From contig CAZCYO010000001.1 in the NCBI GenBank assembly GCA_964503265.1, forward strand, positions 162,064 through 226,063: 64,000 nucleotides of DNA, read 5' to 3'. The notes under the pieces were generated by a model. The model did no database searches. It was not told the DNA's origin and worked only from the letters and a program-made list of their open reading frames with translations. Below, in pieces: positions 6,133 through 44,032 of this stretch (its first letter is position 1; every line of letters begins with the position of its first letter). The translations under genes and the position numbers were made by a program. The stretch comes from an uncultured Gammaproteobacteria bacterium. GTDB taxonomy: Bacteria > Patescibacteriota > Microgenomatia > Levybacterales > UBA12049.

Positions 6133-7691
6133 TAAAAACGAATGTTGTATTAGATAAAAAAACGATACTTATCGGACTTTTGATTTTTATGTTTTCAATC
6201 ACGCTCCGTTTATGGAACCTGAATGCAGCGGGGAGAGTATGGGACGAAAACGCGATTTTAGAAAAAGGATATCGAATAGTAGAATTAGTGCGTACAGGAG
6301 ATTTTTCTAATCCTTTCTGGTATCGTGAAGCATCAGATCATCCTATTTTCGCATTTTACTTTATCGGGATAGGCGCATACGGTGATCTTATCAAATTTGA
6401 TCAAACTGCTCCAAGTGTTTTTTCTTCAACTCTCAAAGGTGCTCCAATATTTACTTACGATTTAACATATGGAAGACTTGTATCTGTTATCGTTTCTTCA
6501 CTAGCAGTCGTGTTACTGTTTTTCATGGGATCACGGTATTTCTCACGTTTTGTTGGAATTGTTTCTTCTATGATTCTCGCGATGCTTCCACATTTTTTGG
6601 CGTATTCTCAGGAAGTGGAACTTGAGAGTTTTATCATGCTCTTTTTTACTTTGTGTGCATTTGCATATTTTCTCTACTTAGAAACGCATAAAAAAAAGTG
6701 GCTACTTTTAACCGGCGTACTAACAGGGATCACTCTTCAAATAAAACAATCAAATCTTATTATTCTCGTGTTATATCTGGGGACATTTTATCTCTATAAA
6801 CGAATTACTAAGGATAAAAAACTTTCATATATGCATTTCGTGATTATGGGTATTGTTACCTTTATTTCAGCAATCATCGTCTACCCGATGCCGTTTTTAC
6901 ATTTACCAGAATACCTCACTCTTAACTATAATGGGTGGATAAAAGGTGGAGGAAGAATTCCAGAACTTCTTTTCGGTCATCACATGGGTGCACCGTTTGT
7001 CTATTATATCGTTGCACTTCTTGTGACGACTCCTGTAATCATATTAGTTCTCACAGCGATTGGAATGAAGGTGTCATTTGTAAATCGAAAAAAATGGATT
7101 TACCCCACCCTCATCGTATGGTTTTTTGTACCGTATCTCATGTCATTTTTTCATATGCGACAGCATATGGTCAGATATATTATTGAAATATATGCTCCAT
7201 TATCACTTCTATCTGCTATTGGGCTTGAATATGCTTTTCAATTTATTGCGAAAAAGAATTACCAGAAATATCTCTATACTGCTGGTGTTTTTGTTTATTT
7301 ATTGCTTATCTTATTTCGGATTACACCATATTATTTCGATTATTTTAATGAATTAGTCGGGGGAACGAGAAATGTATACGTTCATAAATTGTTTTTCCTT
7401 GGATGGTGGGGAGAAGGACTAAAAGATGCTGGAATGTATGTCGCAACAAATGCACCGGATACATCTCGAATTGGATTGGCTATTAATCCAAATCATAACA
7501 TTCTCTATAGAAAAAATACATTAGTGTATGAATCATTTACTCCAGAAAAGTCATACGATTATGTAATCGTAAATGAATTTAATGTAACACGACTTGGATT
7601 TGATGAATCAGTACTTAAAAAGAAATATAAAATTGTTCACAAAGTCATCGCAGACGGAGCTGAGTTAGTACGAGTATATAAACATCTCTAA
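6129..7691 (+). CDS. GT-C fold membrane glycosyltransferase (ArnT/PMT-like, GT39/GT83 family)
   Basis: ~12 predicted TM segments, N-terminal loop with DE motif (RVWDENAILEKGY), architecture of dolichyl/undecaprenyl-phosphate-sugar dependent transferases. Confidence 0.7.
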   Translation: MIKTNVVLDKKTILIGLLIFMFSITLRLWNLNAAGRVWDENAILEKGYRIVELVRTGDFSNPFWYREASDHPIFAFYFIGIGAYGDLIKFDQTAPSVFSSTLKGAPIFTYDLTYGRLVSVIVSSLAVVLLFFMGSRYFSRFVGIVSSMILAMLPHFLAYSQEVELESFIMLFFTLCAFAYFLYLETHKKKWLLLTGVLTGITLQIKQSNLIILVLYLGTFYLYKRITKDKKLSYMHFVIMGIVTFISAIIVYPMPFLHLPEYLTLNYNGWIKGGGRIPELLFGHHMGAPFVYYIVALLVTTPVIILVLTAIGMKVSFVNRKKWIYPTLIVWFFVPYLMSFFHMRQHMVRYIIEIYAPLSLLSAIGLEYAFQFIAKKNYQKYLYTAGVFVYLLLILFRITPYYFDYFNELVGGTRNVYVHKLFFLGWWGEGLKDAGMYVATNAPDTSRIGLAINPNHNILYRKNTLVYESFTPEKSYDYVIVNEFNVTRLGFDESVLKKKYKIVHKVIADGAELVRVYKHL

Positions 7692-16674: not shown

Positions 16675-18015
16675 ATGAAGCAAATTGCATTTTTAGGTGC
16701 CTCGGGTGAAGTGACTGGATCCTCATATATTTTGACAGGTGCTGATGACACAAAGATTATGATTGACTTTGGGATGTTTCAAGGATCTGAGGATGTGGTC
16801 GCACTTAATTATCAAAAACTCTCTTTTAAGTCATCTGAGTTAAAAGGAGTACTTTTGACTCATGCACATTTAGATCACTGTGGGAGGCTACCGCTTCTGG
16901 TATTTGGTGGATATTTCGGGAAAATCTATATGACTGCGCCTACTCGATCTCTCGTCGAAGTGATTCTCACTGATGCTGCAAAAGTAGCGAAGATGGATTT
17001 AGAACATACCCCACTATATACACAGGATGAAGTCGATAAAGTACTTGAAATGATTGAGGTTATTGAATACGATACAGTCTTTTCGATTGGAAACTTTCAG
17101 ATAACATATAGGGATGCTGGACATATTTTAGGATCAGCAAGCATTGAGATTCTTGATGCCACAGATGAAAAACGGATAGTTTTTAGTGGGGATCTCGGAA
17201 ACTTCCCAGAGGATATCGTGAAATCTACGAAATTTATCGAAGCAGCTGACTATGTGGTTATGGAGTCGACATATGGTGATTCGTCTCATCCTGGGGAGGA
17301 CGTATCAAAAACTATTCAGGAAGAAATAAATGAAATTGAAGCGCATGGGGGAGTGCTTCTCATTCCGGCATTTTCAATTGAACGAACGCAGGAAATCCTC
17401 CATAGAATGAATCATCTGAAAAAAGATGGAAAAATAAAAGCAGAGACACCTGTCTTTTTAGATAGTCCCATGGGAATTCATGCGACGATAATTTTTAAAG
17501 ATTTCAAACAGTTTTATAATGATGAGCTTCATACACATTCAGATGATCCGTTTGGATTTGAAGGTCTGGTTATCACTGAAGAGGCAAGAGATAGTAAGGA
17601 AATTATCAAAGCAATGGATCCGAAAGTGATCGTTGCAGGCTCTGGAATGCTTTCTGGTGGGCGAATTCTTCATCATGCTAGCAATTACCTTCCTCTTCCA
17701 AATACCAGAGTATTATTTGTCGGATATCAATCCGAGGAAACCAATGGTAGGCGTATAATAGAAGGTGCTAAAAGTGTGGTAATTAATGAAAAAACAGTAA
17801 GAGTGAAAGCGCATATAAGAGAAATAAAATCAATGAGTTCTCATGCTGATCAACCAAAACTATTAGAATGGCTGGGGCATATAAAGGGAGTAACAAAAGT
17901 GTTCTTAATTCATGGGGATTCAGATCAACGAAATACCCTACGTCAAGTTATTAAAGAAAAACTACAAATTACAGAAATCTTTATCCCCCAAAACGGACAA
18001 GAAATGTCTCTCTAG
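16675..18015 (+). CDS. MBL-fold beta-CASP family ribonuclease (CPSF/Ysh1-like, COG1236)
   Basis: HxHxDH motif HAHLDHCGRLP, beta-CASP region and C-terminal RNA-metabolising MBL motif (SSHADQ). Confidence 0.8.
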   Translation: MKQIAFLGASGEVTGSSYILTGADDTKIMIDFGMFQGSEDVVALNYQKLSFKSSELKGVLLTHAHLDHCGRLPLLVFGGYFGKIYMTAPTRSLVEVILTDAAKVAKMDLEHTPLYTQDEVDKVLEMIEVIEYDTVFSIGNFQITYRDAGHILGSASIEILDATDEKRIVFSGDLGNFPEDIVKSTKFIEAADYVVMESTYGDSSHPGEDVSKTIQEEINEIEAHGGVLLIPAFSIERTQEILHRMNHLKKDGKIKAETPVFLDSPMGIHATIIFKDFKQFYNDELHTHSDDPFGFEGLVITEEARDSKEIIKAMDPKVIVAGSGMLSGGRILHHASNYLPLPNTRVLFVGYQSEETNGRRIIEGAKSVVINEKTVRVKAHIREIKSMSSHADQPKLLEWLGHIKGVTKVFLIHGDSDQRNTLRQVIKEKLQITEIFIPQNGQEMSL

Positions 18016-26912: not shown

Positions 26913-26946
26913 GCCCCCTGGTATCCACCGGGGGGCTTTCTTTTAC
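26913..26946 (+). terminator. Rho-independent terminator (gccccctgg / ccggggggc stem with one G-U, loop tatcca, then TTTCTTTTAC)
   Basis: GC-rich hairpin plus T-tract 60 nt after the NUDIX stop. Confidence 0.65.
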
Positions 26947-32891: not shown

Positions 32892-33016
32892 TTGTCATCC
32901 TGGAATCCCGAAGATCATCGGGATGGATAGGATCTCATAAAGTGGGATTCTATCGCTTTGCTCCAGAATGACAGTAGGAATTATCTAATAGATTCCCGAT
33001 CAGGTCGGGAATGACA
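32892..33016. mobile_element. full-length (~125 bp) MITE/RPE-like element with TTGTCATCC ... GGAATGACAA termini and two tcccga-N-tcggga hairpins
   Basis: Left TTGTCATCCtggaATCCCGAagatcaTCGGGAT; internal segment homologous to the ileS-internal copy; right end agatTCCCGAtcaggTCGGGAATGACAA; lies in the tdh-kbl intergenic region. Confidence 0.55.
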
Positions 33017-33043
33017 AACTAGACCCAGTATTTTAAATAAAGT

Positions 33044-34300
33044 ATGGCGAAACAAACTTTTATTGACTCATTAATAGCTGAAGTGGCTCGAATTGACGGG
33101 GCTGGGGTAGCGAAACGTAATGAAGTTATTATTGAAGGGTTTACTTCGGATCATGCCCCTCAGGCGATTATAGATGGTAAAAATTACCGAATATTTAATT
33201 CAAATGATTATTTAGGGCTCCGACTTTCTCCTGAACTTGCTAAAGCAGAGGAAGAAGCGACAGAGAAATATGGTGTGGGTCCTGGTGCTGTTCGATTTAT
33301 TTCAGGGACATTACAAGTTTATAAAGATCTAGAAGCTGCTGTGGCGAAATTTCATGGGAGGGACGATGCGATGGTCTTTTCATCTGCATTTGCGGCAAAT
33401 ATCGCAGTTTTGTCATGTTTTTTAAATAAACAAAGCAGAGATTCTGTCATGTCAGATAGTGTGGCTGTTATTTCAGATGAATTAAATCACCGAAGTATTA
33501 TCGATGGTGTACGTACTGCGAGCATTGAGAAAACGCAGAAATTTATTTATCGACATCTCGATTTTACGCATTTGGCTGAAGTGCTTGAAGCAAATAAAGG
33601 TAATTTCAAACGTGCTGTTGTCGTAACCGACGGGATATTTAGTATGATCGGGGAATATACGGATCTTAAGAAATTAAAAGAAGTGACAGATCGGTATGAT
33701 AGTGAATATGAAGAGGGAGTAATGGTAGTTGTGGATGATAGTCATGGTGTTGGGGCATTTGGTCCAACCGGTCGTGGATGTGAGGATGTTACAAATACAA
33801 AAGTAGATATCGTGGTAGGGACATTTGGAAAAGCATTTGGGTGTGATGGAGGATATGTGGTTGGCGATCAAGCGTTTATGGATTATCTTCGCGAATCAGC
33901 TGCTACATATATTTACTCTAATTCTGTTTCACCTGGAGTTGCTGGGTCAGCACTCGCATCAGTCACGACTGTGGCTAGTGAAAAAGGGAAAGAATTACTT
34001 AGTACACTTCAGAAAAATATCGCTCTTTTTAAAGAAGAAATCGCGAAAACGAAATTTGAATTTGCTGCGCAGTCGATACATCCTATTCAACCAGTGCTAA
34101 TAGGTGATGCGATGAAAACGAAAGAACTTAAAAAAGCATTATTTGACCGTGGTATACTCGTTACAAATATTAATTATCCAGTAGTTGCAAAAGGGAGAGA
34201 TGAAATTCGAGTACAAATTAACGCTTCTCATTCAGAGGAAGATATACGATTTTTTGTACAGCAATTGACAGCCGCTGGACGTGAAATGGGCCTCATATAA
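33044..34300 (+). CDS. kbl: glycine C-acetyltransferase (2-amino-3-ketobutyrate CoA ligase), class II PLP aminotransferase
   Basis: NYLGL, VRFISGT, PLP-lysine region GTFGKAFGCDGGYV; synteny with tdh. Confidence 0.7.
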   Translation: MAKQTFIDSLIAEVARIDGAGVAKRNEVIIEGFTSDHAPQAIIDGKNYRIFNSNDYLGLRLSPELAKAEEEATEKYGVGPGAVRFISGTLQVYKDLEAAVAKFHGRDDAMVFSSAFAANIAVLSCFLNKQSRDSVMSDSVAVISDELNHRSIIDGVRTASIEKTQKFIYRHLDFTHLAEVLEANKGNFKRAVVVTDGIFSMIGEYTDLKKLKEVTDRYDSEYEEGVMVVVDDSHGVGAFGPTGRGCEDVTNTKVDIVVGTFGKAFGCDGGYVVGDQAFMDYLRESAATYIYSNSVSPGVAGSALASVTTVASEKGKELLSTLQKNIALFKEEIAKTKFEFAAQSIHPIQPVLIGDAMKTKELKKALFDRGILVTNINYPVVAKGRDEIRVQINASHSEEDIRFFVQQLTAAGREMGLI

Positions 34301-34413
34301 AGATTCCTTCATGTTGCATTTAGTTATATAAATCAGTAATATACAAAAGATTAATTTGTAGGATATTTTCCTCTTTTTCATGCCTTTCCTGTCCAATAGT
34401 ATGAGTTTTTTTT

Positions 34414-36009
34414 ATGGAACAGGAATCTTTGCAGCTTATTGTTAAAAAAAATCCCCTTTGGTTTGACCTGTTGCTTCCTTTTTACATCGTTGTTAGCTTA
34501 TGGTACTTAATATGGATTTATGCATTATCACTTGATTGGTATACATGGTTTGCTGTACCACTGTTTACGGCAGAGATTTATCGAATTTGGTTTTCAATTA
34601 CATCACTTATTACAGCGCGTGTTCTGGCATGCCCTAAAAAAATTGATGCACCCACAACCATTTCTGTGGATGTTCTTATTCCGACACTTAATGAACCATT
34701 TGAAGTACTGGGAAAAACCATTGATGGAGCGATGAATATACGAGGTATTAAGAAGGTACTTGTGTTAGATGATGGAAAAAGGGAATGGGTTGAAGCGTAC
34801 TGTCAAGATATTGGAGCTATCTACTTAGCACGAGGAACAAATGTTCACGCTAAAGCGGGTAATTTAAATTTTGGGTTAAAACATTCTACAGCTGATTTTT
34901 TAATTACCCTTGATGCTGATCATATTCCAGAACCAGATTTTATCGAAAAAACTGCGGGATATTTTCATGATCCAAAACTCGCATTTATTCAAACTCCTCA
35001 AACATTTTATAACCTGGATAGTTTTCAGCACAGATCTGTTAAATCGTATCCACTGTGGAATGAGCAATCGATGTTTTATGATTCGATTCAACCGGCAAAA
35101 AATATATTTAATGCTGCGTTCTTTTGTGGAAGTAGTGCAATTATCAGACGAAGTGCACTCGATAGTATCGGAGGATTTGCGACAGGTACTGCAACAGAAG
35201 ATATTCATACAGCAATTCGAATTCATAGTAAAGGATGGAAGTCACTATTCCTTTCAGATGTACTTGCTCGAGGACTTGCACCAGCTGATCTTAAGGAATA
35301 CCATAAACAGCGAGTGCGCTGGGGTGCTGGTTCACTGGGACTACTTCTCCGTACAAAAGACTCACCACTTTTAATCCGAGGGCTTTCTCCAATGCAGAGA
35401 ATTTGTTATGTAAATTCAACTCTCGCATATGCTCAGGGACACGTGAAGTTATTTTACTGGATTTTGCCGATCATTATTATTTTTGCCGGGCATAATCCAT
35501 TTCGAATACCATTTCTTATTTTCTTAAGTATTTATCTTCCATATTTTTGGTTTTCCATCTGGATGACGAAATTATATTCACGCAATTCTTATCATCCGAT
35601 GTATACAGAACAGTATAATATCGCGAATATTTTTTCTAATTTAGTGGCTCTTAAAGGCGTTATTCGAGTACAGAAAAAATTTGCTGTATCGATAAAACTT
35701 AAAAAGAAACAAGAAAATTCATTTATCATAAAAGCGATGACTGGAATTGCATTAACGATGATTGGGGCTGAAGGATATGGATTATATTATTGGTATGCGC
35801 AGTATCATTTTTCAATTGAGAAACTTCTAAGTGATACGATCGTTTCTGGTATGTTTTGGAATTTGTTCAATCTTTTTTTCTTGCTTTCATTCTTAAAATT
35901 TGTGTATCAATTTAATAAACAAAAACAATTTCTGCATGAGGAAAAAAGGGAATTACAAACTGAAAATGTTACTTCTTTTAATCATGCTTCTCTTCAAATA
36001 AACCCATAG
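34414..36009 (+). CDS. processive GT2 beta-glycan synthase (cellulose synthase catalytic subunit BcsA-like)
   Basis: D (VLDDGK), DxD (LDADH), TED (TATEDIHT) and QxxRW (QRVRWGAG) motifs, N- and C-terminal TM bundles. Confidence 0.8.
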   Translation: MEQESLQLIVKKNPLWFDLLLPFYIVVSLWYLIWIYALSLDWYTWFAVPLFTAEIYRIWFSITSLITARVLACPKKIDAPTTISVDVLIPTLNEPFEVLGKTIDGAMNIRGIKKVLVLDDGKREWVEAYCQDIGAIYLARGTNVHAKAGNLNFGLKHSTADFLITLDADHIPEPDFIEKTAGYFHDPKLAFIQTPQTFYNLDSFQHRSVKSYPLWNEQSMFYDSIQPAKNIFNAAFFCGSSAIIRRSALDSIGGFATGTATEDIHTAIRIHSKGWKSLFLSDVLARGLAPADLKEYHKQRVRWGAGSLGLLLRTKDSPLLIRGLSPMQRICYVNSTLAYAQGHVKLFYWILPIIIIFAGHNPFRIPFLIFLSIYLPYFWFSIWMTKLYSRNSYHPMYTEQYNIANIFSNLVALKGVIRVQKKFAVSIKLKKKQENSFIIKAMTGIALTMIGAEGYGLYYWYAQYHFSIEKLLSDTIVSGMFWNLFNLFFLLSFLKFVYQFNKQKQFLHEEKRELQTENVTSFNHASLQINP

Positions 36010-36027
36010 TTTAATTTCCTCTTCACA

Positions 36028-36038
36028 TTTGGTATACT
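36028..36038 (+). promoter_or_regulatory. module 0 promoter: extended -10 TTGGTATACT
   Basis: TGnTATACT directly after the GT2 stop; the same ttcctcacatttg-type context is seen at the module C promoter. Confidence 0.5.
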
Positions 36039-36069
36039 CTCGCCATGTCTTTCACATTCTCGTGGAAGA

Positions 36070-36080
36070 GCACTTTTACA
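36070..36080 (+). promoter_or_regulatory. module 0 leader box (GCACTTTTACA, variant of GCACGTTTACA)
   Basis: One-mismatch copy of the box conserved in all five tandem modules. Confidence 0.45.
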
Positions 36081-36115
36081 TTGTTACGATGCCTACAAGG
36101 CAGAAAGGATCTGTA

Positions 36116-36607
36116 ATGGACCTATCTCGTTTGTTCTGGGTAAACCTTTTCGGTATGATGATGAGTACGGTACTCGTGTTAGAGTACCATTTCCTTGTCC
36201 AAGACCGAGGTAGTCGGGGCGTGAAGTCCGTGGCGACAGCAGGAGTACTATTCATGCTTGTTCCACAAACAGTCATGGACTGCTTCTTCGTATATAACTC
36301 AGTACTTATTTATCCACTGAACTTTTTCTATAGCATAATGGGCATACTCGCCTTTTTTTTGGCAGCAATGCTAGTGAGTTCGCTCACACCAAAGCGGTTT
36401 CATGTATACCTTCTCCCACTCCATGCACTTCTCATAGTTGCAGGATGTGTAGAGATGGTAGCTATTCCTATCACCGCTTATGCAGTACAGCATGCTAGAG
36501 GAATAGAAATGTTCTTCTTTGTCGCGCTGGCAAGTATCGTCATACCTGTCGGTTCTATCATAGGGGTCACATCGCTCATGCTTCCGAAATACGGAGGCAC
36601 ACACTAA
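36116..36607 (+). CDS. island module 0: polytopic membrane protein (163 aa, ~4-5 TM)
   Basis: SD AAAGGA 6 nt before ATG at 36116 (ORF-track start 36029 is TTG inside the promoter); GC-rich codons. Confidence 0.55.
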   Translation: MDLSRLFWVNLFGMMMSTVLVLEYHFLVQDRGSRGVKSVATAGVLFMLVPQTVMDCFFVYNSVLIYPLNFFYSIMGILAFFLAAMLVSSLTPKRFHVYLLPLHALLIVAGCVEMVAIPITAYAVQHARGIEMFFFVALASIVIPVGSIIGVTSLMLPKYGGTH

Positions 36608-36622
36608 CATGCAGGAGGAGTC

Positions 36623-36883
36623 ATGCGAAAAGAACTCAGTGACATGAATCGACGGCAATTGGGTCGTCGAGTTCGGCGTTACAATCAGGTGTGCAAGGTG
36701 CTTATTCGAGCATTTGCGTACTTGGAAGTAACAGATGCCTACAAGCTCTTTCAGTGCGAAGTCGCTTCCTTTAGGAGGGACATTCGCAAGAAGAGGAAGT
36801 ACCCAACGGGTGTTCTGCGGACGCGAGTTATCAGGGTGCATGAGCGTTTGCAAGCGGTTGTGAAGCTCACGCACCGAGTATAA
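36623..36883 (+). CDS. island module 0: small highly basic protein (86 aa, Arg/Lys-rich, nucleic-acid-binding-like)
   Basis: SD AGGAGG before ATG; RRQLGRRVRRYNQ ... KKRKYPTGVLRTRVIRVHERL. Confidence 0.55.
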   Translation: MRKELSDMNRRQLGRRVRRYNQVCKVLIRAFAYLEVTDAYKLFQCEVASFRRDIRKKRKYPTGVLRTRVIRVHERLQAVVKLTHRV

Positions 36884-36892
36884 GGAGGTCTC

Positions 36893-37168
36893 ATGGCTGA
36901 TAGGCAGTTTCAAGGATTGACCCGAGTTCAACTCGCTGGGATCGCATGGAACATGCGTGGAATCATGGATATTCTCAACTCAGGACCGGATCTCGATGTG
37001 TCATTTCACCTCGTCTGGTTCTACCGTGAGCTTGAGAACTTCACAACTATGTTTAATTCACAAGAAGACGTTGAGACGCTTCGTCTTCAACTGTGCGTGG
37101 TGTATCAGGAGATGCACGGCTTCATATCTGTAGGAGGAGATGAAGTATCATCTACTGTTCAGTCGTAA
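36893..37168 (+). CDS. island module 0: small soluble protein (91 aa)
   Basis: SD AAGGAGG before ATG; followed by structured terminator. Confidence 0.55.
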   Translation: MADRQFQGLTRVQLAGIAWNMRGIMDILNSGPDLDVSFHLVWFYRELENFTTMFNSQEDVETLRLQLCVVYQEMHGFISVGGDEVSSTVQS

Positions 37169-37177
37169 CAATATCTA

Positions 37178-37290
37178 TAAGCACCGTCGCGGTGTAACCG
37201 AGCAGTGATCCTTACTTCTGGACAATGGCGTCCATGAGGCGAGAACTCAGCTTCGGTTGCATAAACCAAAGCGGTGCTTTCTCGTTTTAG
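37178..37290 (+). terminator. module 0 structured terminator: AAGCACCG ... CGGTGCTT closing stem enclosing ~85 nt, then TCTCGTTTTAG
   Basis: Same GCACC/GGTGC closing helix with covarying flanks is found after modules A-D. Confidence 0.55.
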
Positions 37291-37359
37291 AATGATATAT
37301 TTCGAAATATTCCACAATAATCTTCATTACATTATAATCCCATAGCTTGTAAATTTTAC

Positions 37360-37374
37360 TTTTTTTGTTATACT
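37360..37374 (+). promoter_or_regulatory. module A promoter: T-tract + extended -10 TGTTATACT
   Basis: ttttttTGtTATACT. Confidence 0.5.
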
Positions 37375-37437
37375 CCAGTTTATATCTAAACATATGTAGA
37401 CTAATACCTGTCTATAGTAGGTTTATTTATGCTCATA

Positions 37438-37448
37438 GCACGTTTACA
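37438..37448 (+). promoter_or_regulatory. module A leader box GCACGTTTACA
   Basis: Exact copy of conserved 11-mer, ~65 nt downstream of -10. Confidence 0.5.
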
Positions 37449-37546
37449 GTACGGAAAAGTGATTCAATTAGGAACTCTTTATTTCATATCTATAGAGATA
37501 TGAGGTATGGGGTTCCTATTTTGGAACCGAATCGAGGAGGGTCAGC

Positions 37547-38020
37547 ATGGCTATCCAGATTCCCGACCCAGCTTTGGGAGCCTGGTTTTTTCCAGAAAAC
37601 GCCCCGATTCCTATGGAGTTCGTCTCTGATAACTTCGCACTTCGCATCAGCAAAGGCGGCCGTAAGGTTGTCGTTGGCGAGGTTACGATCATCGATGCGA
37701 TCAAGATGTGTATGTATACCGTCCGGATGGAGAATGGCTTGCCAGTTGCTTATTGGCAAGCTGTGCAAAGTGATCCCGATGCGAAGTTGACCCTTGGCCT
37801 GGCGCCACTGGGTGAAAAGAGGGAGGTAACTCCGAAGGAGCGCAGGAGGATGAATTTCCTTCTGCATAACGCGGCAGGGTGCAATTGTGTGCCGTTTCCT
37901 GGCGATGTGACCATCTTCTGGCGCACGGCGCTGGACATGTGCGCGTCTCCCAATAGTCAGAGGCATACGCCTCGGCGCCAGATGACCAAGGTCAGTCCGC
38001 GAAAAGCTCACAAGCGCTAA
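37547..38020 (+). CDS. island module A: hypothetical protein (157 aa) with basic C-terminal tail
   Basis: SD GAGGAGG before ATG; ~165-nt leader containing a ggttcc/ggaacc hairpin. Confidence 0.55.
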   Translation: MAIQIPDPALGAWFFPENAPIPMEFVSDNFALRISKGGRKVVVGEVTIIDAIKMCMYTVRMENGLPVAYWQAVQSDPDAKLTLGLAPLGEKREVTPKERRRMNFLLHNAAGCNCVPFPGDVTIFWRTALDMCASPNSQRHTPRRQMTKVSPRKAHKR

Positions 38021-38060
38021 GCCTCTCACTTCTCACACCATTCCGTACTCTCGTGCCTAC

Positions 38061-38145
38061 GCACCCTCGAATCAGTGATGATTCATTCGCCATGTGGCGG
38101 ATTCTTAGTGACAACGATGTCACAACGAGAGGGTGCATTACCATT
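38061..38145 (+). terminator. module A structured terminator: GCACCCTC ... GAGGGTGC closing stem, weak U-tract
   Basis: Covariant version of the GCACC/GGTGC helix; encloses a gtgaca/tgtcac hairpin. Confidence 0.45.
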
Positions 38146-38174
38146 TAAATAACCCATAGTTCTACTTTAATTCC

Positions 38175-38188
38175 TTTTTTGCTATACT
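38175..38188 (+). promoter_or_regulatory. module B promoter: T-tract + extended -10 TGCTATACT
   Basis: ttttttGCTATACT. Confidence 0.5.
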
Positions 38189-38226
38189 TCGCTTACGTCA
38201 TACTAAGAAAAAATCTTAGTGTGCTC

Positions 38227-38237
38227 GCACGTTTACA
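38227..38237 (+). promoter_or_regulatory. module B leader box (TC)GCACGTTTACA
   Basis: Exact 13-mer TCGCACGTTTACA. Confidence 0.5.
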
Positions 38238-38268
38238 TCTTTCGTATTGTGTCAGAAGAAAGGAGTCT

Positions 38269-38619
38269 ATGATGCTACCACATCCTCATGACTATGGACG
38301 AATTCAACTGCGAGCAGTATTTTCCCTGCAACGTTCACCAACTGGTGAAACTCTCATTGAAGAGGGCGACTACCGGCTGGTCAAGCATTTGCCATGTGGC
38401 CATCCATTTAAGACGATGGCACTAGCAATTATGCTTAACCTCGGATCGTACAAGATCTGGGAACTACGTGCTCTCATAGAGCATATAGAGAGAAAGGAGA
38501 GCGTTGGCATCGAAAGTATCTTTGGCGAACTAATCACCTGTGTGAGATGCCGTGAGGCATTTCTTCACCTCGTGACTGGGTTCATGGATGCACTCATCGC
38601 AATGGGCGAAGAGAGCTAA
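38269..38619 (+). CDS. island module B: soluble protein (116 aa) with Cys/His cluster (CGHP ... CVRC)
   Basis: SD AAAGGAG before ATG at 38269 (ORF-track 38179 start lies in the promoter). Confidence 0.55.
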   Translation: MMLPHPHDYGRIQLRAVFSLQRSPTGETLIEEGDYRLVKHLPCGHPFKTMALAIMLNLGSYKIWELRALIEHIERKESVGIESIFGELITCVRCREAFLHLVTGFMDALIAMGEES

Positions 38620-38637
38620 AACAAAGGAGGCTGTGTC

Positions 38638-38949
38638 ATGCGCGAATACTGGTGGGTTGGCATTCTTGGGTGGATTCTGCTCGATATCACTGGTAGTAGG
38701 TTAAGTCCTCGTGCCATTAAAGGTACATGGCGGAGTGAAGAGACACCACTTGGAAAAGTCATCTCTTTTCTCGGATACTCCAGTGTTCTGGCATCGCACA
38801 TCGTGTTCGTGGTTACCTTTCTTCTCCTTCTGCGCTCAGATGGATTCTTCGCAGTCGTCGGCTGTAGTGGAGCAGTCGCAGTAGGCGATCGCTCAGCTGT
38901 GAGTATGGGATACTTCACGCACAAACGAGAAAGGAGGAATCCACAATAA
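38638..38949 (+). CDS. island module B: two-TM mini-membrane protein (103 aa), basic C-terminus ...RERRNPQ
   Basis: SD AAGGAGG; C-terminus similar to module C mini-protein (...NRHRPQN). Confidence 0.55.
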   Translation: MREYWWVGILGWILLDITGSRLSPRAIKGTWRSEETPLGKVISFLGYSSVLASHIVFVVTFLLLLRSDGFFAVVGCSGAVAVGDRSAVSMGYFTHKRERRNPQ

Positions 38950-38958
38950 CCAAACAAT

Positions 38959-39071
38959 AAGCACCGTGGAGGTGTAACCGAGCAAAGTAGCTCATCAACG
39001 GACAACGGCGTCCATGAGATTGGCACTTAGCTACGGTTACCTAAACCTAAGCGGTGCTTTCTCATTTTTAG
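38959..39071 (+). terminator. module B structured terminator: AAGCACCG ... CGGTGCTT + TCTCATTTTTAG
   Basis: Near-identical in organisation to the module 0 terminator (shared internal ggtgtaaccgagca and ggacaa-ggcgtccatgag). Confidence 0.55.
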
Positions 39072-39090
39072 CGCCCCAAAGTCTTATTGT

Positions 39091-39108
39091 CTTTTTTTTT
39101 GGTATAAT
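39091..39108 (+). promoter_or_regulatory. module C promoter: T9 tract + extended -10 TGGTATAAT
   Basis: ctttttttttGGTATAAT. Confidence 0.5.
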
Positions 39109-39178
39109 TTCCTCACATTTGAAAGGTACAGAGACTATTCAAGCTGTCTTTATTACTTTATCAATTGTCTAATCTATC

Positions 39179-39189
39179 GCACGTTTACA
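39179..39189 (+). promoter_or_regulatory. module C leader box (TC)GCACGTTTACA
   Basis: Exact 13-mer. Confidence 0.5.
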
Positions 39190-39285
39190 TTTTTTGCGGA
39201 AATTAACCCACTCACCGATGGCTTTTTGTTTGGTATCACTACCAGCTGAAAAGCTGTCGAATGAGTGTAATGTAGGAGAGGATCT

Positions 39286-39615
39286 ATGAAGTTCGTGGAG
39301 GTCTACACTCGGTTGGAAGGAGTTCCAGAAGGAACTATCATCAGCTTGACGTTTAAAAAAAAGGACATCAAGAAAATTCTCTATTTGGCTACGATGATCG
39401 GGAAGAAAATCCCTATCTTCACAGTCGAGAAAGGAACAAAGAAGAAAATAAAGCGGCTGTCTCGTAAGCAAGTCTGGTATAACAGACGAGATCGTACGAT
39501 CTCTGTCCGGACCACTTCGACCTTTGGAGAAGCTCTGAATATGGATTGGTTCGTCACAGTTATGTGTTATAGCCTCGAACATGTCGAGGTCTTATTCCAT
39601 CAGGAGCACCGCTGA
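39286..39615 (+). CDS. island module C: soluble Lys-rich protein (109 aa), LTF-motif family
   Basis: SD AGGAGAGG; N-terminus MKFVEVYTRLEGVPEGTIISLTF paralogous to 40816 ORF (MKLVDIYALSSAGIPTGAKLVLTF). Confidence 0.55.
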   Translation: MKFVEVYTRLEGVPEGTIISLTFKKKDIKKILYLATMIGKKIPIFTVEKGTKKKIKRLSRKQVWYNRRDRTISVRTTSTFGEALNMDWFVTVMCYSLEHVEVLFHQEHR

Positions 39616-39727
39616 AGCGGTAAAGGAGGTCACAAACCGTACAGCTGCTCGAGTTAGCGGCCACTGTTCACAATTCCTTCATCGATCTGATGAGGAACCT
39701 CGACTATATTCGCTGAGGAGGTGCACT

Positions 39728-39877
39728 ATGCCCCCGTTCAACGTAGTTATTGCTATCGTAATTGTAGCTCTCGTGGCTACATTCGCGATAAGCCGTGATC
39801 TATGGCCAGCTCTCGGAGTGTTCGTTGGAGGAATTCTCATTCTGTTGTGGTGCAATAGACACCGTCCACAGAATTAA
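39728..39877 (+). CDS. island module C: two-TM mini-membrane protein (49 aa)
   Basis: SD GAGGAGG before ATG at 39728; paralogous to 40630 ORF; ORF-track 39581 extension is unsupported. Confidence 0.5.
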   Translation: MPPFNVVIAIVIVALVATFAISRDLWPALGVFVGGILILLWCNRHRPQN

Positions 39878-39913
39878 ATTTCCTTACTTTTTCCGTAATG
39901 GTTATCGTGCCTT

Positions 39914-39978
39914 AAGCACCCCGATACGTTTCCAGTGATGGGAATTTCCGAAAGGATAGGGGTGCTTTCTCATTTTTA
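39914..39978 (+). terminator. module C structured terminator: AAGCACCCC ... GGGGTGCTT + TCTCATTTTTAT
   Basis: Compensatory change (CG to CC/GG) relative to modules 0 and B. Confidence 0.55.
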
Positions 39979-40020
39979 TATCCTCAATTCATTGAAACCT
40001 ATAGTTTGATTATTTCTCAT

Positions 40021-40033
40021 TTTTTTGCTATAC
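40021..40033 (+). promoter_or_regulatory. module D promoter: T-tract + extended -10 TGCTATACT
   Basis: tttttTGcTATACT. Confidence 0.5.
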
Positions 40034-40175
40034 TACACATGCATTTGAAGGCTATCTAGACTCATTTTTGCTGTCTCGATAATACTTCTTCTGCTTATTT
40101 ATTCGACCACTGTATCTTACTTTTCGACTTAGATCATTTGATCTGTGGCTTAAAGAGCGATAAGTAGTGGACTTC

Positions 40176-40186
40176 GCACGTTTACA
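40176..40186 (+). promoter_or_regulatory. module D leader box (TC)GCACGTTTACA
   Basis: Exact 13-mer; followed by tcccgat-atac-atcggga hairpin and CGATGGCTTT(T)TG motif shared with module C leader. Confidence 0.5.
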
Positions 40187-40303
40187 AATCATCCCGATAT
40201 ACATCGGGAATTGCGGAAATAGATAACTAATCGATGGCTTTGTGCCTCGACAGACAGTCGGGATAGAAAGTCGTCGGTTAGTTTTTCGTCGAAAGGATCA
40301 TAA

Positions 40304-40606
40304 ATGTCTCACGAAGCTGTTCTGAACATAGTCACAGACCTTCTGCCACTGACGCTGATCGAGATAACCTTCACACTAGAAGGATTTCAGGGTCTCTGCC
40401 TTCTACATCAAATGTGTCAACGCAAGGGTTTACCTCTGCTATTTGACGCGCGGACTCATCGTCGAATTGGACGTCTAGTGAGCATCGGAGAGTGGGGAGA
40501 CGATGGAAATCGTCATATCTTCGGATACATATCCGAGGCTTTTTCTCCCACTCACTTCACTGAAACACTTCAGCCATATCTCGAAAATGTTCGAGTAGTG
40601 GCCTAA
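40304..40606 (+). CDS. island module D: soluble protein (100 aa), LTF-motif family
   Basis: SD AAAGGA; LTLIEITFTLEG motif. Confidence 0.5.
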   Translation: MSHEAVLNIVTDLLPLTLIEITFTLEGFQGLCLLHQMCQRKGLPLLFDARTHRRIGRLVSIGEWGDDGNRHIFGYISEAFSPTHFTETLQPYLENVRVVA

Positions 40607-40629
40607 CCTACATAATGGAGGTGTCCAAC

Positions 40630-40791
40630 ATGCAAACATTCTGCGATCTGTTTGCCATCTTTCTGGTGGCGATCGGGTATACAGCCGCATTAAGCGGCGG
40701 ACTACTCGGTGGGGGAATTCTCATCACAGTTGCGCTCCTTCTCATCTTCGCGCCCACAGTCTATATGGACTGGGCAAAATTGCGTCGCTGA
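40630..40791 (+). CDS. island module D: two-TM mini-membrane protein (53 aa; below ORF-track size cutoff)
   Basis: SD GGAGG 8 nt before ATG; MQTFCDLFAIFLVAIGYTAALSGGLLGGGILITVALLLIF resembles module C mini-protein; coordinates hand-counted (+/-1). Confidence 0.45.
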   Translation: MQTFCDLFAIFLVAIGYTAALSGGLLGGGILITVALLLIFAPTVYMDWAKLRR

Positions 40792-40815
40792 TGCGACAAA
40801 TGTAATGGAGGCACC

Positions 40816-41013
40816 ATGAAGCTCGTCGACATCTATGCTCTGTCCAGTGCTGGTATCCCGACGGGAGCAAAACTCGTACTTACGTTCGAGCTCAATGCGC
40901 ACATGGGTCCTTTCCACCTGAAAGGACTTGTTCAGAATCACAGTTTGCCGACCGCGTCGGCCCCTTCTTGGAGAGCCTGGAGATTAAGCGCCCGTAAGGG
41001 CAATGAGCTATAA
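40816..41013 (+). CDS. island module D: small soluble protein (65 aa), paralog of module C 109-aa protein N-terminus
   Basis: SD GGAGG; MKLVDIYALSSAGIPTGAKLVLTFEL. Confidence 0.5.
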   Translation: MKLVDIYALSSAGIPTGAKLVLTFELNAHMGPFHLKGLVQNHSLPTASAPSWRAWRLSARKGNEL

Positions 41014-41035
41014 CGCAATCGTACACGTGCGAATC

Positions 41036-41112
41036 TCGCACCCTTGGGTCTTTTTAGACCCGCCTCTTTAGAGAGGTTTCTGTAAAAAGAAAGGGTGCGA
41101 TTTTTGCATTTT
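41036..41112 (+). terminator. module D / island-end structured terminator: TCGCACCCTT ... AAGGGTGCGA + TTTTTGCATTTT
   Basis: 10-bp closing helix around two internal hairpins (gggtc/gaccc, cctct/agagg) followed by U-tract, 40 nt before ileS. Confidence 0.55.
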
Positions 41113-41155
41113 ATGCCTAGTTGAATAGGCTCAACCTTTGCGCTACAATTAGCCC

Positions 41156-44032
41156 ATGGCTCACGAGATAACATTTGATGCAGTAACCCCGAAAGTAAAT
41201 TTTCCTGAAATGGAAGAAGAGACACTTTCTTACTGGAAAGAAAACCGTATTTTTGAAAAATCACTTGAAAAAGATTCCCCTAAAGGTGACTGGACATTTT
41301 TAGATGGTCCACCTTTTGTCACAGGACTTCCACACTATGGTCATATTTTAGGCAGTATCGCGAAAGATTTATTCCCTCGTTTTAAAACGATGCAGGGATA
41401 TCACGTCAGACGTGTATGGGGATGGGATGGGCACGGACTACCGATTGAAAATAAAGTCGAGAATAAGCTTGAAATAAAACGTAAAAAAGATATCGAAGAA
41501 ATCGTCGGAGTAGCGAAATTTATCGAAGAATGTAAAACATATGTGAATGAAGTATCAGGAGAGTGGGAATGGTACATCGATCATATCGCGCGTTGGGTAG
41601 ATTTTAAAAATGCATACAAAACCTGGGATACACCATACATGGAATCTGTCATGTGGGTGTTTAAACAGATGTATGAAAAAGGATATGTCTATAAAGGACT
41701 TCGCGTTTCTCTCTACTGTCCTCACTGTTCAACACCTATTTCTAACTTCGAAGTCGCGATGGATGCAGACAATTATAAAGAAATTATCGACGCAGCTACC
41801 ACATACAAGTATGAATTAGTAGGTGAAAATAATACCTATATTCTTGCTTGGTCGACAACTCCTTGGAATAAAATCGTTACTCCAGCCCTGGCCGTAAATC
41901 CAAAACTCACCTATGTAAAAGTGATACAGGGTGAAGAACTGTATATTTTAGCTGAATCCACTATCAAGACGATTCAAGGGGAATATGAAGTAATTGAAAA
42001 GATGCAGGGAGCTGACTTAGTAGGAAAGAAATTCGTGCCTCATTATGATTATTATAAAATTGCAGAGGGTGAGAAAGCCTTTGAAATTATCCCTGGAGAT
42101 TTCGTGACAGCAGAGGAGGGAACTGGCGTTGTCACAATCGCTGCCTACGGTGAAGAGGATTTGAAAGTAATGAACGAATATAATGTTCATATCGAACTTC
42201 ATGTCGATGAGGAAGGTACAATTAAATCCGACGTGCCGATGTTTGGTGGGATGTATTATTTAAAGGCAAACAAAGCAGTTAATGCAGATTTAGCAGAACG
42301 AGGGCTTGTCTATCGTGATGAAGATTTGCCACACAATGTTCCACTCTGCTGGAGATGTCACACCAGGCTCTACTATGCTCCACAAAATGCGTGGTATGTA
42401 AATGTACAGATACTTAAAGATCAACTGAAAAAAACAAATAAAGATATTAACTGGGTTCCATCTCACTTTAAAACTGGACGCTTTCAGAAAAGTATCGAAG
42501 CAGCACCAGACTGGTGTATATCACGAAATAGATACTGGGGTTCACCGGTTCCAGTGTGGGAATGTATGTGTGGAGAGCGATTCGTTCCAGGATCGATTGC
42601 TGAACTAGAAACGGCAAGTGGACGAAAAATAAAAGACTTACATAAGCCAGAAATAGACGAAGTAACAGTTCCGTGTAAAAAATGTGATCAAACCATGCAT
42701 AGAGTACCAGAAGTACTCGATAGTTGGATTGAGGCTGGGTCTGCAGCTTTTGCAGAACGTCACTTTCCATTTGAAGGAATCACTGATCCTAGCGAATTCT
42801 TCCCATCAGATTTTATCGTCGAATATACAGGACAGATTCGCGCATGGTTCTATGTATTACATGTTATTTCAAATGCAATTTACGGTGAAAAAGCATTTAA
42901 AAATGTCGCTGTTACTGGAGTAATACTTGGAACTGATGGACGAAAGATGAGTAAGAATCTGGGTAATTATCCAGATCCGAAGGAACTTATGAAAGAGTAT
43001 GGAGGAGACGCACTCAGACTCTATCTCATGAGTAGTCCTGTGATTCGTGGTGAGGATGCGATTATATCTGCTGAAGCATATCGACAGGAAGTACGAGGAC
43101 TCATGCTTATTTTATGGAATGTCTATAACTTCTTTATTAGTTATGCTCTTATTGATGGCTGGACTCCTGATCGTCATCCTGGAAAAGCAACGACTTTGAT
43201 AGGATCTCACAAGAATGGAGATTCTATCGCTGCGCTCCAGAATGACAATGTTTTAGATCAATGGATCATATCTCTTCAGAATACGTTGATTAAAGAAGTC
43301 ACTGAGTGTTTAGAAAAATATGATACGGTAACTTCAATCGCGAAATTGCATGAATTCGTTAATGACCTTTCGACATGGTATTTACGACGAAGTCGAGATC
43401 GTGTGGGACCAAGTGCGATGGATACACATGACAGAGAAGCGTTTTATGTAACCATGTATGAAGTACTGACCACACTATGTCGTGTGATGGCGCCGTTCAC
43501 ACCATTTTTAGCAGATGAAATGTATATGAATTTAACGAAAGAAGAGTCTGTGCATTTAGCATCATGGCCTGAGTATAAAGAAGAACTAATTAACAAACAG
43601 CTTAACGAAGAAATGAATGTGGTTCGTAAAATTGTCGAGATAGGACATGCGAAACGAAAAGAAACAGGTTTTAAAGTTAGACAGCCACTAAATAATTGTC
43701 AAATATCAAATGTCCAATATCCAATATCCAAAGAGATGATGCAGTTGCTTAAGGATGAACTAAACGTAAAAGAAATAGAATTTACTTTAGGAGAAGAAGA
43801 AATAGATGTTATTTTCGACATTGTGTTAACACCTGAGCTTAAAGCTGAGGGGGAGGCGCGGGATATCGTTAGAAAGATTCAAGAAGAAAGAAAGATGATC
43901 GGAACGACGCTTGATGCGAAAGTGAATGTGACGATTCCTGAGTATCCTGAAAGTTTTGTGGAGTATATTAAACAGAATGCACTAGTTGAAATAATTTCAA
44001 AAGGGGAGTTTAAGGTAGAGAAAGTTGGGTAG
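41156..44032 (+). CDS. ileS: isoleucyl-tRNA synthetase, eukaryote-like type 2
   Basis: HIGH variant PHYGH, GWDGHGLPIE, KMSKN motif GRKMSKNLGNYPDP; N-terminus typical of type 2 IleRS; TACAAT 7 nt before ATG, no SD. Confidence 0.85.
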   Translation: MAHEITFDAVTPKVNFPEMEEETLSYWKENRIFEKSLEKDSPKGDWTFLDGPPFVTGLPHYGHILGSIAKDLFPRFKTMQGYHVRRVWGWDGHGLPIENKVENKLEIKRKKDIEEIVGVAKFIEECKTYVNEVSGEWEWYIDHIARWVDFKNAYKTWDTPYMESVMWVFKQMYEKGYVYKGLRVSLYCPHCSTPISNFEVAMDADNYKEIIDAATTYKYELVGENNTYILAWSTTPWNKIVTPALAVNPKLTYVKVIQGEELYILAESTIKTIQGEYEVIEKMQGADLVGKKFVPHYDYYKIAEGEKAFEIIPGDFVTAEEGTGVVTIAAYGEEDLKVMNEYNVHIELHVDEEGTIKSDVPMFGGMYYLKANKAVNADLAERGLVYRDEDLPHNVPLCWRCHTRLYYAPQNAWYVNVQILKDQLKKTNKDINWVPSHFKTGRFQKSIEAAPDWCISRNRYWGSPVPVWECMCGERFVPGSIAELETASGRKIKDLHKPEIDEVTVPCKKCDQTMHRVPEVLDSWIEAGSAAFAERHFPFEGITDPSEFFPSDFIVEYTGQIRAWFYVLHVISNAIYGEKAFKNVAVTGVILGTDGRKMSKNLGNYPDPKELMKEYGGDALRLYLMSSPVIRGEDAIISAEAYRQEVRGLMLILWNVYNFFISYALIDGWTPDRHPGKATTLIGSHKNGDSIAALQNDNVLDQWIISLQNTLIKEVTECLEKYDTVTSIAKLHEFVNDLSTWYLRRSRDRVGPSAMDTHDREAFYVTMYEVLTTLCRVMAPFTPFLADEMYMNLTKEESVHLASWPEYKEELINKQLNEEMNVVRKIVEIGHAKRKETGFKVRQPLNNCQISNVQYPISKEMMQLLKDELNVKEIEFTLGEEEIDVIFDIVLTPELKAEGEARDIVRKIQEERKMIGTTLDAKVNVTIPEYPESFVEYIKQNALVEIISKGEFKVEKVG
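43172..43248 (+). mobile_element. ~77 bp copy of the TGTCATCC/GAATGACA repeat family inserted in-frame within ileS (encodes ~RHPGKATTLIGSHKNGDSIAALQNDN)
   Basis: cGTCATCCtggaa...ataggatctcacaagaatggagattctatcgctgcgctccaGAATGACAa is ~85% identical over ~50 nt to the internal part of the 32892-33016 element. Confidence 0.6.

Follow-up and report, generated by a model that had tools for sequence, protein, structure and literature searches.

What is the repeated inverted sequence GCACC...GGTGC doing behind a row of small orphan (ORFan) genes in a bacterial chromosome? The sequence recurs in a 64,000-nt stretch of contig CAZCYO010000001.1 (the window, throughout), from an uncultivated low-GC bacterium, within a ~5.1-kb island (about 36010-41150) that is flanked by the gene for a GT2 glycosyltransferase (34414-36009) on one side and by ileS (41156-44032) on the other. 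Five tandem modules, designated 0, A, B, C and D, make up the island; all are read on the + strand, and each carries one to three small open reading frames (ORFs) with strong Shine-Dalgarno sites. An alignment of the six intergenic regions gives them a common frame, consisting of a promoter-like block, a box in the 5' untranslated region (5'UTR), the ORFs, a stem-closed element and a U-rich tail. We propose that the GCACC...GGUGC helices are probably the base stems of a family of Rho-independent-type terminators, formed in the + strand RNA and bounding autonomous units.

The five arm pairs listed by a first-pass annotation of the window are all present, exact in position and sequence (Table 1), and they lie where it had placed them, at the 3' end of each module. 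They are on the coding strand, directly past the last stop codon: the 5' arms begin 10-45 nt past the stop codons at 37166, 38018, 38947, 39875 and 41011. The pattern GCACC-N(20-110)-GGTGC occurs seven times in the 64 kb, compared with about 0.8 expected; five of these matches are at module 3' ends, and the remaining two are chance occurrences inside coding sequence. Dispersed copies of the REP/BIME type were not seen within the 64 kb, where the helices are confined to the island apart from these two matches. Perfect GC-rich inverted repeats (at least 8 bp, loops of 25-110 nt) number 11 in the window; nine of them are in the island, and five are the helices described here. As the first-pass annotation had expected, the arms pair better than shuffled controls, with fold z-scores against dinucleotide shuffles of -3.7, -4.4, -6.2, -2.8 and -8.5 for elements 0, A, B, C and D. 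Closing-pair probabilities are 0.9-1.0, except for the outermost pair in 0, B, C and D (about 0.55-0.65), and the first 8 closing pairs of every helix are kept when whole transcripts of 770-1250 nt are folded. In each of the five elements the + strand folds more stably, with a margin of 1.5-5.7 kcal/mol over the - strand.

Folding separates the elements into two shapes, with A, C and D forming three- or four-way junctions and 0 and B forming rods. Elements 0 and B are unbranched, each with a single long irregular rod, which in 0 ends in an apical hairpin; A, C and D enclose two or three smaller hairpins. The enclosed length, put at 50-90 nt in the first-pass annotation, measures 36-85 nt. The first internal hairpins of A and C both keep CA-GUGA-UG, a GNRA-type tetraloop, while four of their stem pairs differ on both sides (GAAUCA/UGAUUC vs UUUCCA/UGGGAA, compared by eye from the folds).

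The core GCACC/GGUGC is constant and its flanks change in a compensating manner. The five copies yield 10 aligned pairs, of which 5 are invariant and 5 differ on both sides; the paired cells amount to 93.9%, compared with 37-53% in slid registers, and a single shuffle in 500 reaches this paired fraction. When a sixth copy from another organism (contig L094, described below) is added, there are 11 pairs, 5 invariant and 6 doubly changed; the covariation score is then reached by 0/500 shuffles and the number of doubly changed pairs by 2/500. The compensation that had been taken as the signature of a selected helix is present, but significance of the R-scape type is unattainable with 5-6 copies, two of which (0 and B) are 83% identical.

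A U-tract follows the helix in four of the five elements (0, B, C and D) and is weak in A. The T-tract scores of these four (3.3-4.1) compare with 3.8 for the single canonical host terminator (26913-26936), and the U-rich tail is present on one strand only. The tails do not merge into the T-tract of the next promoter, as had been suggested; the two are separate features, at least 21 nt apart. One 12-mer, TTTCTCATTTTT, makes up the terminator tails of both B (39058-39069) and C (39966-39977) and is found again at 40013-40024, in the spacer of the module D promoter, 47 nt past the tail of C; this recurrence may be a trace of the joining or duplication of terminator and promoter halves.

The strongest single argument for the closing helix as a terminator stem is the copy on L094, a 1134-nt contig from a different metagenome that we reached by a full HMMER search through a homologue of ORF e (module B). 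This protein is the one distant homologue of ORF e that the search found; it has the same length, 28% identity (pairwise E 8e-16) and the motifs LPCGHP and CxRC in common with it. Past its two ORFs, the contig reads ...GTACTCGTGC-TGA-GCGCACCTC-gggattcct-GAGGTGCGC-TTTTTGTATTTT, a terminator of the form CGTGC-TGA-GCGCACCTC-loop-GAGGTGCGC-TTTTTGTATTTT, in which the stem with the GCACC/GGUGC core folds into a plain hairpin of 14 bp around a 3-nt loop and the U-tract UUUUUGUAUUUU comes next. Then come AAACCTATAGTTTGAATAATTCTTTCATTTTTGCTATACT, which is nearly identical to the module D promoter, an AGACT hairpin, the box variant CGCACGTTAATA, ATTGCGGAA, and a long 5'UTR hairpin resembling those of modules C and D. 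The conserved parts are, in order, a CGTGC motif (the X box), the stem, the U-tract, the promoter CCTATAGTTTGA...TGCTATACT and the box CGCACGTT. The non-coding frame is conserved across two organisms, and the proteins less so; the ORF e homologue is also followed by a different element type than ORF e in the window. Judged by its sequence, the L094 hairpin with its U-tract is a canonical intrinsic terminator, and because the homologue has this form we read the closing helices of the window as terminator stems with apically expanded interiors. Fold, position, strand, four U-rich tails and the canonical L094 homologue all support the main line of the first-pass annotation, that these are structured terminators.

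Several observations weigh against this interpretation. The classical hairpin/T-tract score (calibrated on simple hairpins) is positive for element D only (9.8); it ranges from -10 to -17 for 0, B and C and falls to -48.6 for A, compared with 33.7 for the canonical host terminator. The U-tract behind A is poor. Canonical intrinsic terminators have short loops of 3-8 nt, whereas stem closure around interiors of 36-85 nt must await a distant 3' arm. The host appears to use few canonical terminators, and in the rest of the window consensus terminator-like sites barely exceed the shuffle expectation. Termination does not account for the invariance of the exact GCACC/GGUGC core. Finally, the six copies come from two lineages only and include the near duplicates 0 and B, between which there is no compensatory change, the paired columns being conserved and the changes falling in the inner region.

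On the terminator reading, each unit would start at a promoter of the sigma-70 type, in which a T-rich spacer leads to an extended -10, and run through a 5'UTR containing GCACGTTTACA, one to three ORFan genes and the stem-closed element to the U-rich tail. Conservation is seen in the 8-10 bp GC-rich stem beside the U-tract; the apex is free to vary, from a 3-nt loop in L094 through the long rods of 0 and B to the two or three additional hairpins of A, C and D. Each stem and the promoter behind it would form a repeated terminator-promoter junction that insulates neighboring modules and may supply homology for module shuffling. We infer that transcription stops at the tails and that recombination proceeds via the junctions.

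The promoter-like block consists of CCYATAGTT, which overlaps a -35-like hexamer, a T-rich spacer and TGnTATAMT. Each of the four junctions within the island joins a 3' element to such a promoter (CCYATAGTT, T-tract and TGnTATAMT), the terminator-promoter layout recurs upstream of ileS, and the junction is conserved in L094. A T-tract with an extended -10 also precedes host genes. Since host genes and ileS carry a matching promoter layout, the modules appear to use host-type promoters. At the two borders of the island, the GT2 stop codon adjoins the promoter of the first module (36005-36040), and the ileS promoter (41115-41150) has the form CCTAGTTGAAT-N17-TACAAT, with the layout of the module promoters; the island may have grown via repeated insertion beside copies of the ileS promoter.

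The 5'UTR box GCACGTTTACA is exact in four modules and has one mismatch in module 0, a result matched by 0/100 shuffles. It lies 31-141 nt past the -10 and 31-117 nt ahead of the start codon. Because it is conserved beyond the needs of the pairing predicted below, the box may be a protein-binding or processing site. We rejected it as a sigma-54 promoter, a second sigma-70 promoter or a dif/Xer-like site, as the required partner half-sites are not conserved (by eye). Immediately ahead of the ribosome-binding site, the 5'UTRs of C (39209-39267), D (40225-40285) and L094 (about 1037-1098) have a long hairpin in common; its shared sequence is ACTnAnCGATGGCTTT...GAAAGnnGTCG...AGT, and the changes appear to preserve pairing.

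Table 1. Features of the five modules, with their counterparts on contig L094; positions are those of the window unless L094 is named.
Feature	Position	Strand	Sequence	Remarks
Element 0, closing helix	37179-37187 / 37271-37279	+	AAGCACCGT / GCGGTGCTT	
Element 0	37179-37279	+		one long irregular rod with apical GGAC-AAUGGC-GUCC hairpin; minimum free energy -43.1 kcal/mol (- strand -37.4)
Element 0, tail	37280-37288	+	TCTCGTTTT	extends TT of the arm; T-tract score 3.27
Element A, closing helix	38061-38068 / 38129-38136	+	GCACCCTC / GAGGGTGC	
Element A	38061-38136	+		three enclosed hairpins, the first (38069-38084) with GUGA loop
Element A, tail	after 38136	+	ATTACCATTT	weak U-tract; T-tract score 1.19
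Element B, closing helix	38959-38967 / 39051-39059	+		
Element B	38959-39059	+		rod shape as element 0
Element B, tail	39060-39069	+	TCTCATTTTT	
Element C, closing helix	39914-39922 / 39959-39967	+	AAGCACCCC / GGGGTGCTT	
Element C	39914-39967	+		two enclosed hairpins, the first (39928-39945) with GUGA loop
Element C, tail	39968-39977	+	TCTCATTTTT	
Element D, closing helix	41036-41045 / 41091-41100	+	TCGCACCCTT / AAGGGTGCGA	
Element D	41036-41100	+		three enclosed hairpins
Element D, tail	41101-41114	+	TTTTTGCATTTTAT	
Module A, promoter-like T-tract and extended -10	37362-37374	+	TTTTTGTTATACT	consensus match only; junction partner of element 0
Module B, promoter-like	38176-38188	+	TTTTTGCTATACT	consensus match
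Module C, promoter-like	39096-39108	+	TTTTTGGTATAAT	consensus match
Module D, promoter-like	40022-40034	+	TTTTTGCTATACT	-35 to -10 region nearly identical to that of L094
Module 0, 5'UTR box	36070-36080	+	GCACTTTTACA	one mismatch
Module A, 5'UTR box	37438-37448	+	GCACGTTTACA	
Module B, 5'UTR box	38227-38237	+	GCACGTTTACA	
Module C, 5'UTR box	39179-39189	+	GCACGTTTACA	
Module D, 5'UTR box	40176-40186	+	GCACGTTTACA	
L094, 5'UTR box variant	L094 1012-1022		GCACGTTAATA	other organism
Module A, X box	38052-38056	+	CGTGC	4 nt upstream of 5' arm; pairs locally with arm GCAC before the 3' arm exists, and with the 5'UTR box in full-length folds
Module C, X box	39906-39910	+	CGTGC	
Module D, X region	41021-41033	+	GTACACGTGCGAA	complementary to 40173-40185; CGTGC at 41026-41030
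L094, X box	L094 846-850		CGTGC	
Module 0, predicted 5'-3' helix	36080-36089 : 37163-37172			10 perfect pairs
Module A, predicted 5'-3' helices	37438-37442 : 38052-38056; 37448-37456 : 38041-38049			
Module C, predicted 5'-3' helices	39179-39183 : 39906-39910; 39194-39202 : 39890-39898			
Module D, predicted 5'-3' helices	40173-40185 : 41021-41033; 40210-40215 : 41014-41019			second segment, 6 bp

Compared with ordinary Rho-independent terminators, the window elements have the GC-rich stem, the U-rich tract directly after it, the coding strand and the position just past the stop codon. They differ in enclosing 36-85 nt rather than 3-8, in the lack of a good U-tract behind A, and in the conserved stem core, as ordinary terminators need no fixed core. 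A compact hairpin is absent from the window elements and present in the L094 homologue, which is fully canonical. The closest architectural analogue appears to be the PeSL cassettes of T4-type phages, in which a repeated stem-loop terminator and a strong sigma-70-like promoter flank small ORFans in hyperplastic, hypervariable regions subject to modular shuffling (PMC2839356, PMC4122927). Transcriptional insulation of the units and linker homology for shuffling are features of PeSL that would hold for the window as well. The window elements are not PeSL in the strict sense of family membership: the locus is a bacterial chromosome (ftsA, ftsZ, ileS, ftsW, L21) and not a T4-type phage, the junctions add a 5'UTR box and an X box whereas PeSL stems are simple poly-G/poly-C hairpins, and neither mini-circles nor recombination events were observed at the window locus. 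Indirect signs of shuffling can be read from the sequences, in the element shared by 0 and B, the different elements of C and D, the other element type in L094, and the divergence of a related strain at 35927. Phage 'morons', reportedly described by Juhala and Hendrix in about 2000, are promoter-gene-terminator units inserted between older genes. The modules resemble them as autonomous units with their own promoter and terminator and a base composition unlike that of neighboring genes, and differ in lying outside any prophage context, as five tandem units with a homologous non-coding frame.

If the terminator reading is correct, a design known from T4-type phages would also operate in the chromosome of an uncultivated low-GC bacterium, and conserved terminator-promoter junctions would form a portable frame around fast-changing orphan genes. 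Because the frame is better conserved than the proteins, the frame rather than the genes is the handle by which such islands might be located in metagenomes. The elements would also provide a natural set of terminators with one stem and varied apices (plain loop, rod, three-way junction and four-way junction), which could show how much interior structure an intrinsic terminator tolerates.

Could the elements instead serve chiefly to stabilize the message? In folds of full transcripts, the region of the 5'UTR box pairs with the 45 nt ahead of the 5' arm with a probability of about 1.0 in modules 0, A, C and D, and the predicted helices enclose the ORFs of these modules, directly upstream of the closing helices. 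Module B is ambiguous and weak: the full-length minimum free energy fold pairs 38240-38252, past the box, with 38919-38930 (probability about 0.2), and in a more probable alternative the box region (38222-38229) pairs locally with 38309-38316. A 5'UTR-3'UTR panhandle of this kind, its 3' end capped by the stem-closed element, could shield the message from 5'-end-dependent and 3' exonucleases, or keep it inactive until processed as in hok (tac/fbi) and icaR, with termination as a secondary role. We regard such a closed-loop device as unlikely to be the main function, and it overlaps the terminator explanation in any case. When the 41-nt 5' region was dinucleotide-shuffled and refolded, as many such pairs as observed arose in 3.6% (0), 3.3% (A), 5.8% (B), 0.8% (C) and 1.8% (D) of trials (about 1e-4 when combined by Fisher's method, for windows picked after the pattern was seen and with A and C homologous, not independent). 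One position of the stalk, read from the sequence, holds a different pair in each of three modules (A, A-U; C, G.U; D, G-C). However, plain complementarity compared with other island windows is marginal (per-module p 0.05-0.42, Fisher 0.045), and the ends of folded RNAs have a tendency to pair in any case, the shuffled 5' region of A still pairing at least 10 nt with the 45 nt ahead of the arm in 30% of trials. Neither the 5'UTR box nor the X box is particular to one module; both belong to the family at large, and the pattern is therefore not one of module-specific co-evolution. The ribosome-binding sites lie outside the stalk. RNAduplex runs on 5' and 3' segments were uninformative, since large loops inflated all scores.

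Pairing between the 5' and 3' regions of a bacterial message has precedents in the tac/fbi stem of hok (PMC9841398) and in the interaction of the two icaR UTRs (PMC3868564). The likeness lies in a long-range 5'UTR-3'UTR helix, here predicted, beside a 3' terminal structure, and in the 49- and 53-aa hydrophobic proteins of some modules. The modules differ from both in that the helix is a prediction only and leaves the ribosome-binding site uncovered, that up to three ORFs occur per module, and that the analysis identified no antisense RNA. The window also encodes, at 16675-18015, an RNase J-like beta-CASP/RMMBL metallo-beta-lactamase protein, a candidate 5'-end-dependent ribonuclease that would be relevant if 5'-3' pairing shields the messages. 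We treat the predicted pairing as a lead and not as a result; if real, it would add to the closed-loop messages of bacteria.

The four short boxes of a module might also act as a relay, although we find this doubtful. In such a scheme, with L the 5'UTR box (GCACG...), X the CGUGC ahead of the terminator, Y the 5' arm (GCACC) and Z the 3' arm (GGUGC), events at the 3' end (termination, read-through or stability) would depend on the state of a 5'UTR located 600-900 nt upstream. Capture of X by L would leave Y free for Z, and the terminator or 3' clamp would form; were the 5'UTR occupied or removed, X would pair with Y and closure would be weakened. A relay of this type, if true, would amount to a long-range attenuator within a portable non-coding frame around hypervariable orphan genes.

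Regulated attenuation in the more usual sense, in which Y pairs with either Z or a nearby GUGC copy to gate read-through, perhaps through capture of X by the 5'UTR box, is very unlikely. The alternative partner would be X upstream (A, C and D) or CGGUG downstream (0 and B). A, C, D and L094 each have an X box, placed 2-4 nt ahead of the 5' arm, with which it forms the small palindrome CGTGC-N-GCAC; the box is conserved in L094 as well, and GCAC/GUGC is common to all four boxes. In folds that end ahead of the 3' arm, X does pair with the GCAC of the arm in A, C and D. Yet only 4 bp (A and C) or 6 bp (D) of X:Y pairing are formed, so the folds would make X a weak kinetic competitor at most. When the 3' arm is kept from pairing, the fold loses about 7 kcal/mol in C and 12-18 kcal/mol in the other four elements, and the closing pairs inside the outermost one form at 0.9-1.0. 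The choice between terminator and antiterminator that the first-pass annotation had drawn for caccg-tcg-cggtg in 0 and B fails for the same reason, as there is no competition with the closing helix (core pair probability 0.9-1.0); the local hairpin itself exists, with 5 bp in 0 and only 4 bp in B, and is thermodynamically negligible. No sensing element, leader peptide or binding factor was identified, and because every module has its own promoter, read-through is unneeded for expression.

It is most improbable that the repeats function as DNA, whether as cassette recombination sites (attC-like, Xer-type) or as the ends of miniature transposable elements (MITEs): the layout is indeed cassette-like, with variable ORFs and, closing each cassette on its 3' side, an imperfect palindrome whose length varies and whose inverted ends are conserved, the island coding sequence has a GC content of 0.49 compared with 0.36 for the rest of the window, and a 99%-identical strain diverges just ahead of the island, but the strand bias, the one-strand tail, the position past the stop codon and the absence of attC cores, of target-site duplications and, among the ORFs scanned, of a recombinase domain all argue against a role at the DNA level. 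The cores of attC sites follow the consensus RYYYAAC...GTTRRRY, which the ends (A)AGCACC...GGTGCT(T) do not match; the modules carry their own promoters, the G.U pairs of the + strand fit RNA, and the L094 element is an ordinary terminator hairpin. The MITE reading was ruled out, as no target-site duplications flank the elements. No integrase, transposase, Xer-type or other recombinase domain was found by a Pfam scan (E<=1e-6) of non-overlapping ORFs of at least 120 aa outside about 30.7-41.1 kb, together with precomputed Pfam hits for the genes at 27.5-36 kb.

The elements and their modules sit in an otherwise ordinary bacterial chromosome, the window encoding murG, ftsA, ftsZ, a family A DNA polymerase (polA-like), ileS, ftsW, the L21 gene, parB, a signal peptidase and many glycosyltransferases; it contains no tRNA genes. 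The GC content of the island (0.43-0.47) compares with roughly 0.30-0.43 elsewhere in the window, and island intergenic sequence is at 0.40. Modules C and D are also carried by the 99%-identical strain (ENA ERZ4216102; contig L093 vs window 39228-40948). With the exception of an N-run at the start of ORF h, the differences are confined to ORFs, with three non-synonymous substitutions and one in-frame 6-nt deletion; every non-coding base in C/D is identical, and element C, being identical, adds no variation to the comparison of stems. The strain's GT2 gene (L056 vs window 32981-35927) diverges at 35927, where its contig ends. Within the island, elements 0 and B are 83% identical though the ORFs preceding them are unrelated, and modules C and D have 5'UTR and protein families in common but different elements.

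Searches with the non-coding parts were made in several collections. The Rfam search proposed in the first-pass annotation was run, and nothing in the window reached the gathering score; at the E-value threshold, the island gave only two chance-level matches (E about 1), and nothing was found in L094 or in two further contigs, L091 and L078. An exact-pattern scan for the terminator returned 41 matches in a viral collection, all unrelated, and 11 in GTDB genomes, which are chance matches or an unrelated Lachnospiraceae motif. Scanning for the promoter with the 5'UTR box gave 35 matches in metagenomes, all due to chance, and one in the viral collection, on a contig also among the metagenome matches. 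The shared-promoter scan of the viral collection gave zero matches and the X-Y-Z-T pattern scan chance matches only, and the island had no blastn match in phage or plasmid collections.

For the island proteins, searches of Pfam, PHROG, NCBIfam and PADLOC gave nothing that passed the reporting E-value of the respective library. Searches with ORF a, with ORF d and with a joint profile of ORFs g and i, which are weakly paralogous, detected no homologues outside the species in a collection of 5.8 billion proteins. In some modules the products include small hydrophobic proteins (49 and 53 aa); the sole product of module A is a soluble protein of 157 aa. AlphaFold models of two proteins have moderate confidence. 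That of ORF e (38272-38619) is all-helical (pLDDT 74) and has no significant fold match in the PDB. ORF b (36623-36883) encodes an arginine-rich protein of 86 aa with three predicted helices (pLDDT 66), which could bind nucleic acid.

L091 and L078, which are among the metagenome matches to the promoter with the 5'UTR box, hold an unrelated tandem 152-nt repeat in which the same 11-mer occurs by chance. The repeat lies at L091 1-790 (- strand) and L078 about 6060-6150, in metagenome sequence with a GC content of 0.53, as at least 5 tandem units; each 152-nt unit combines a promoter of the TATAAT type with a structured region and a GC-rich hairpin that carries a T-tract, and gave no Rfam match. 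From its sequence, the array looks like a set of small RNA genes.

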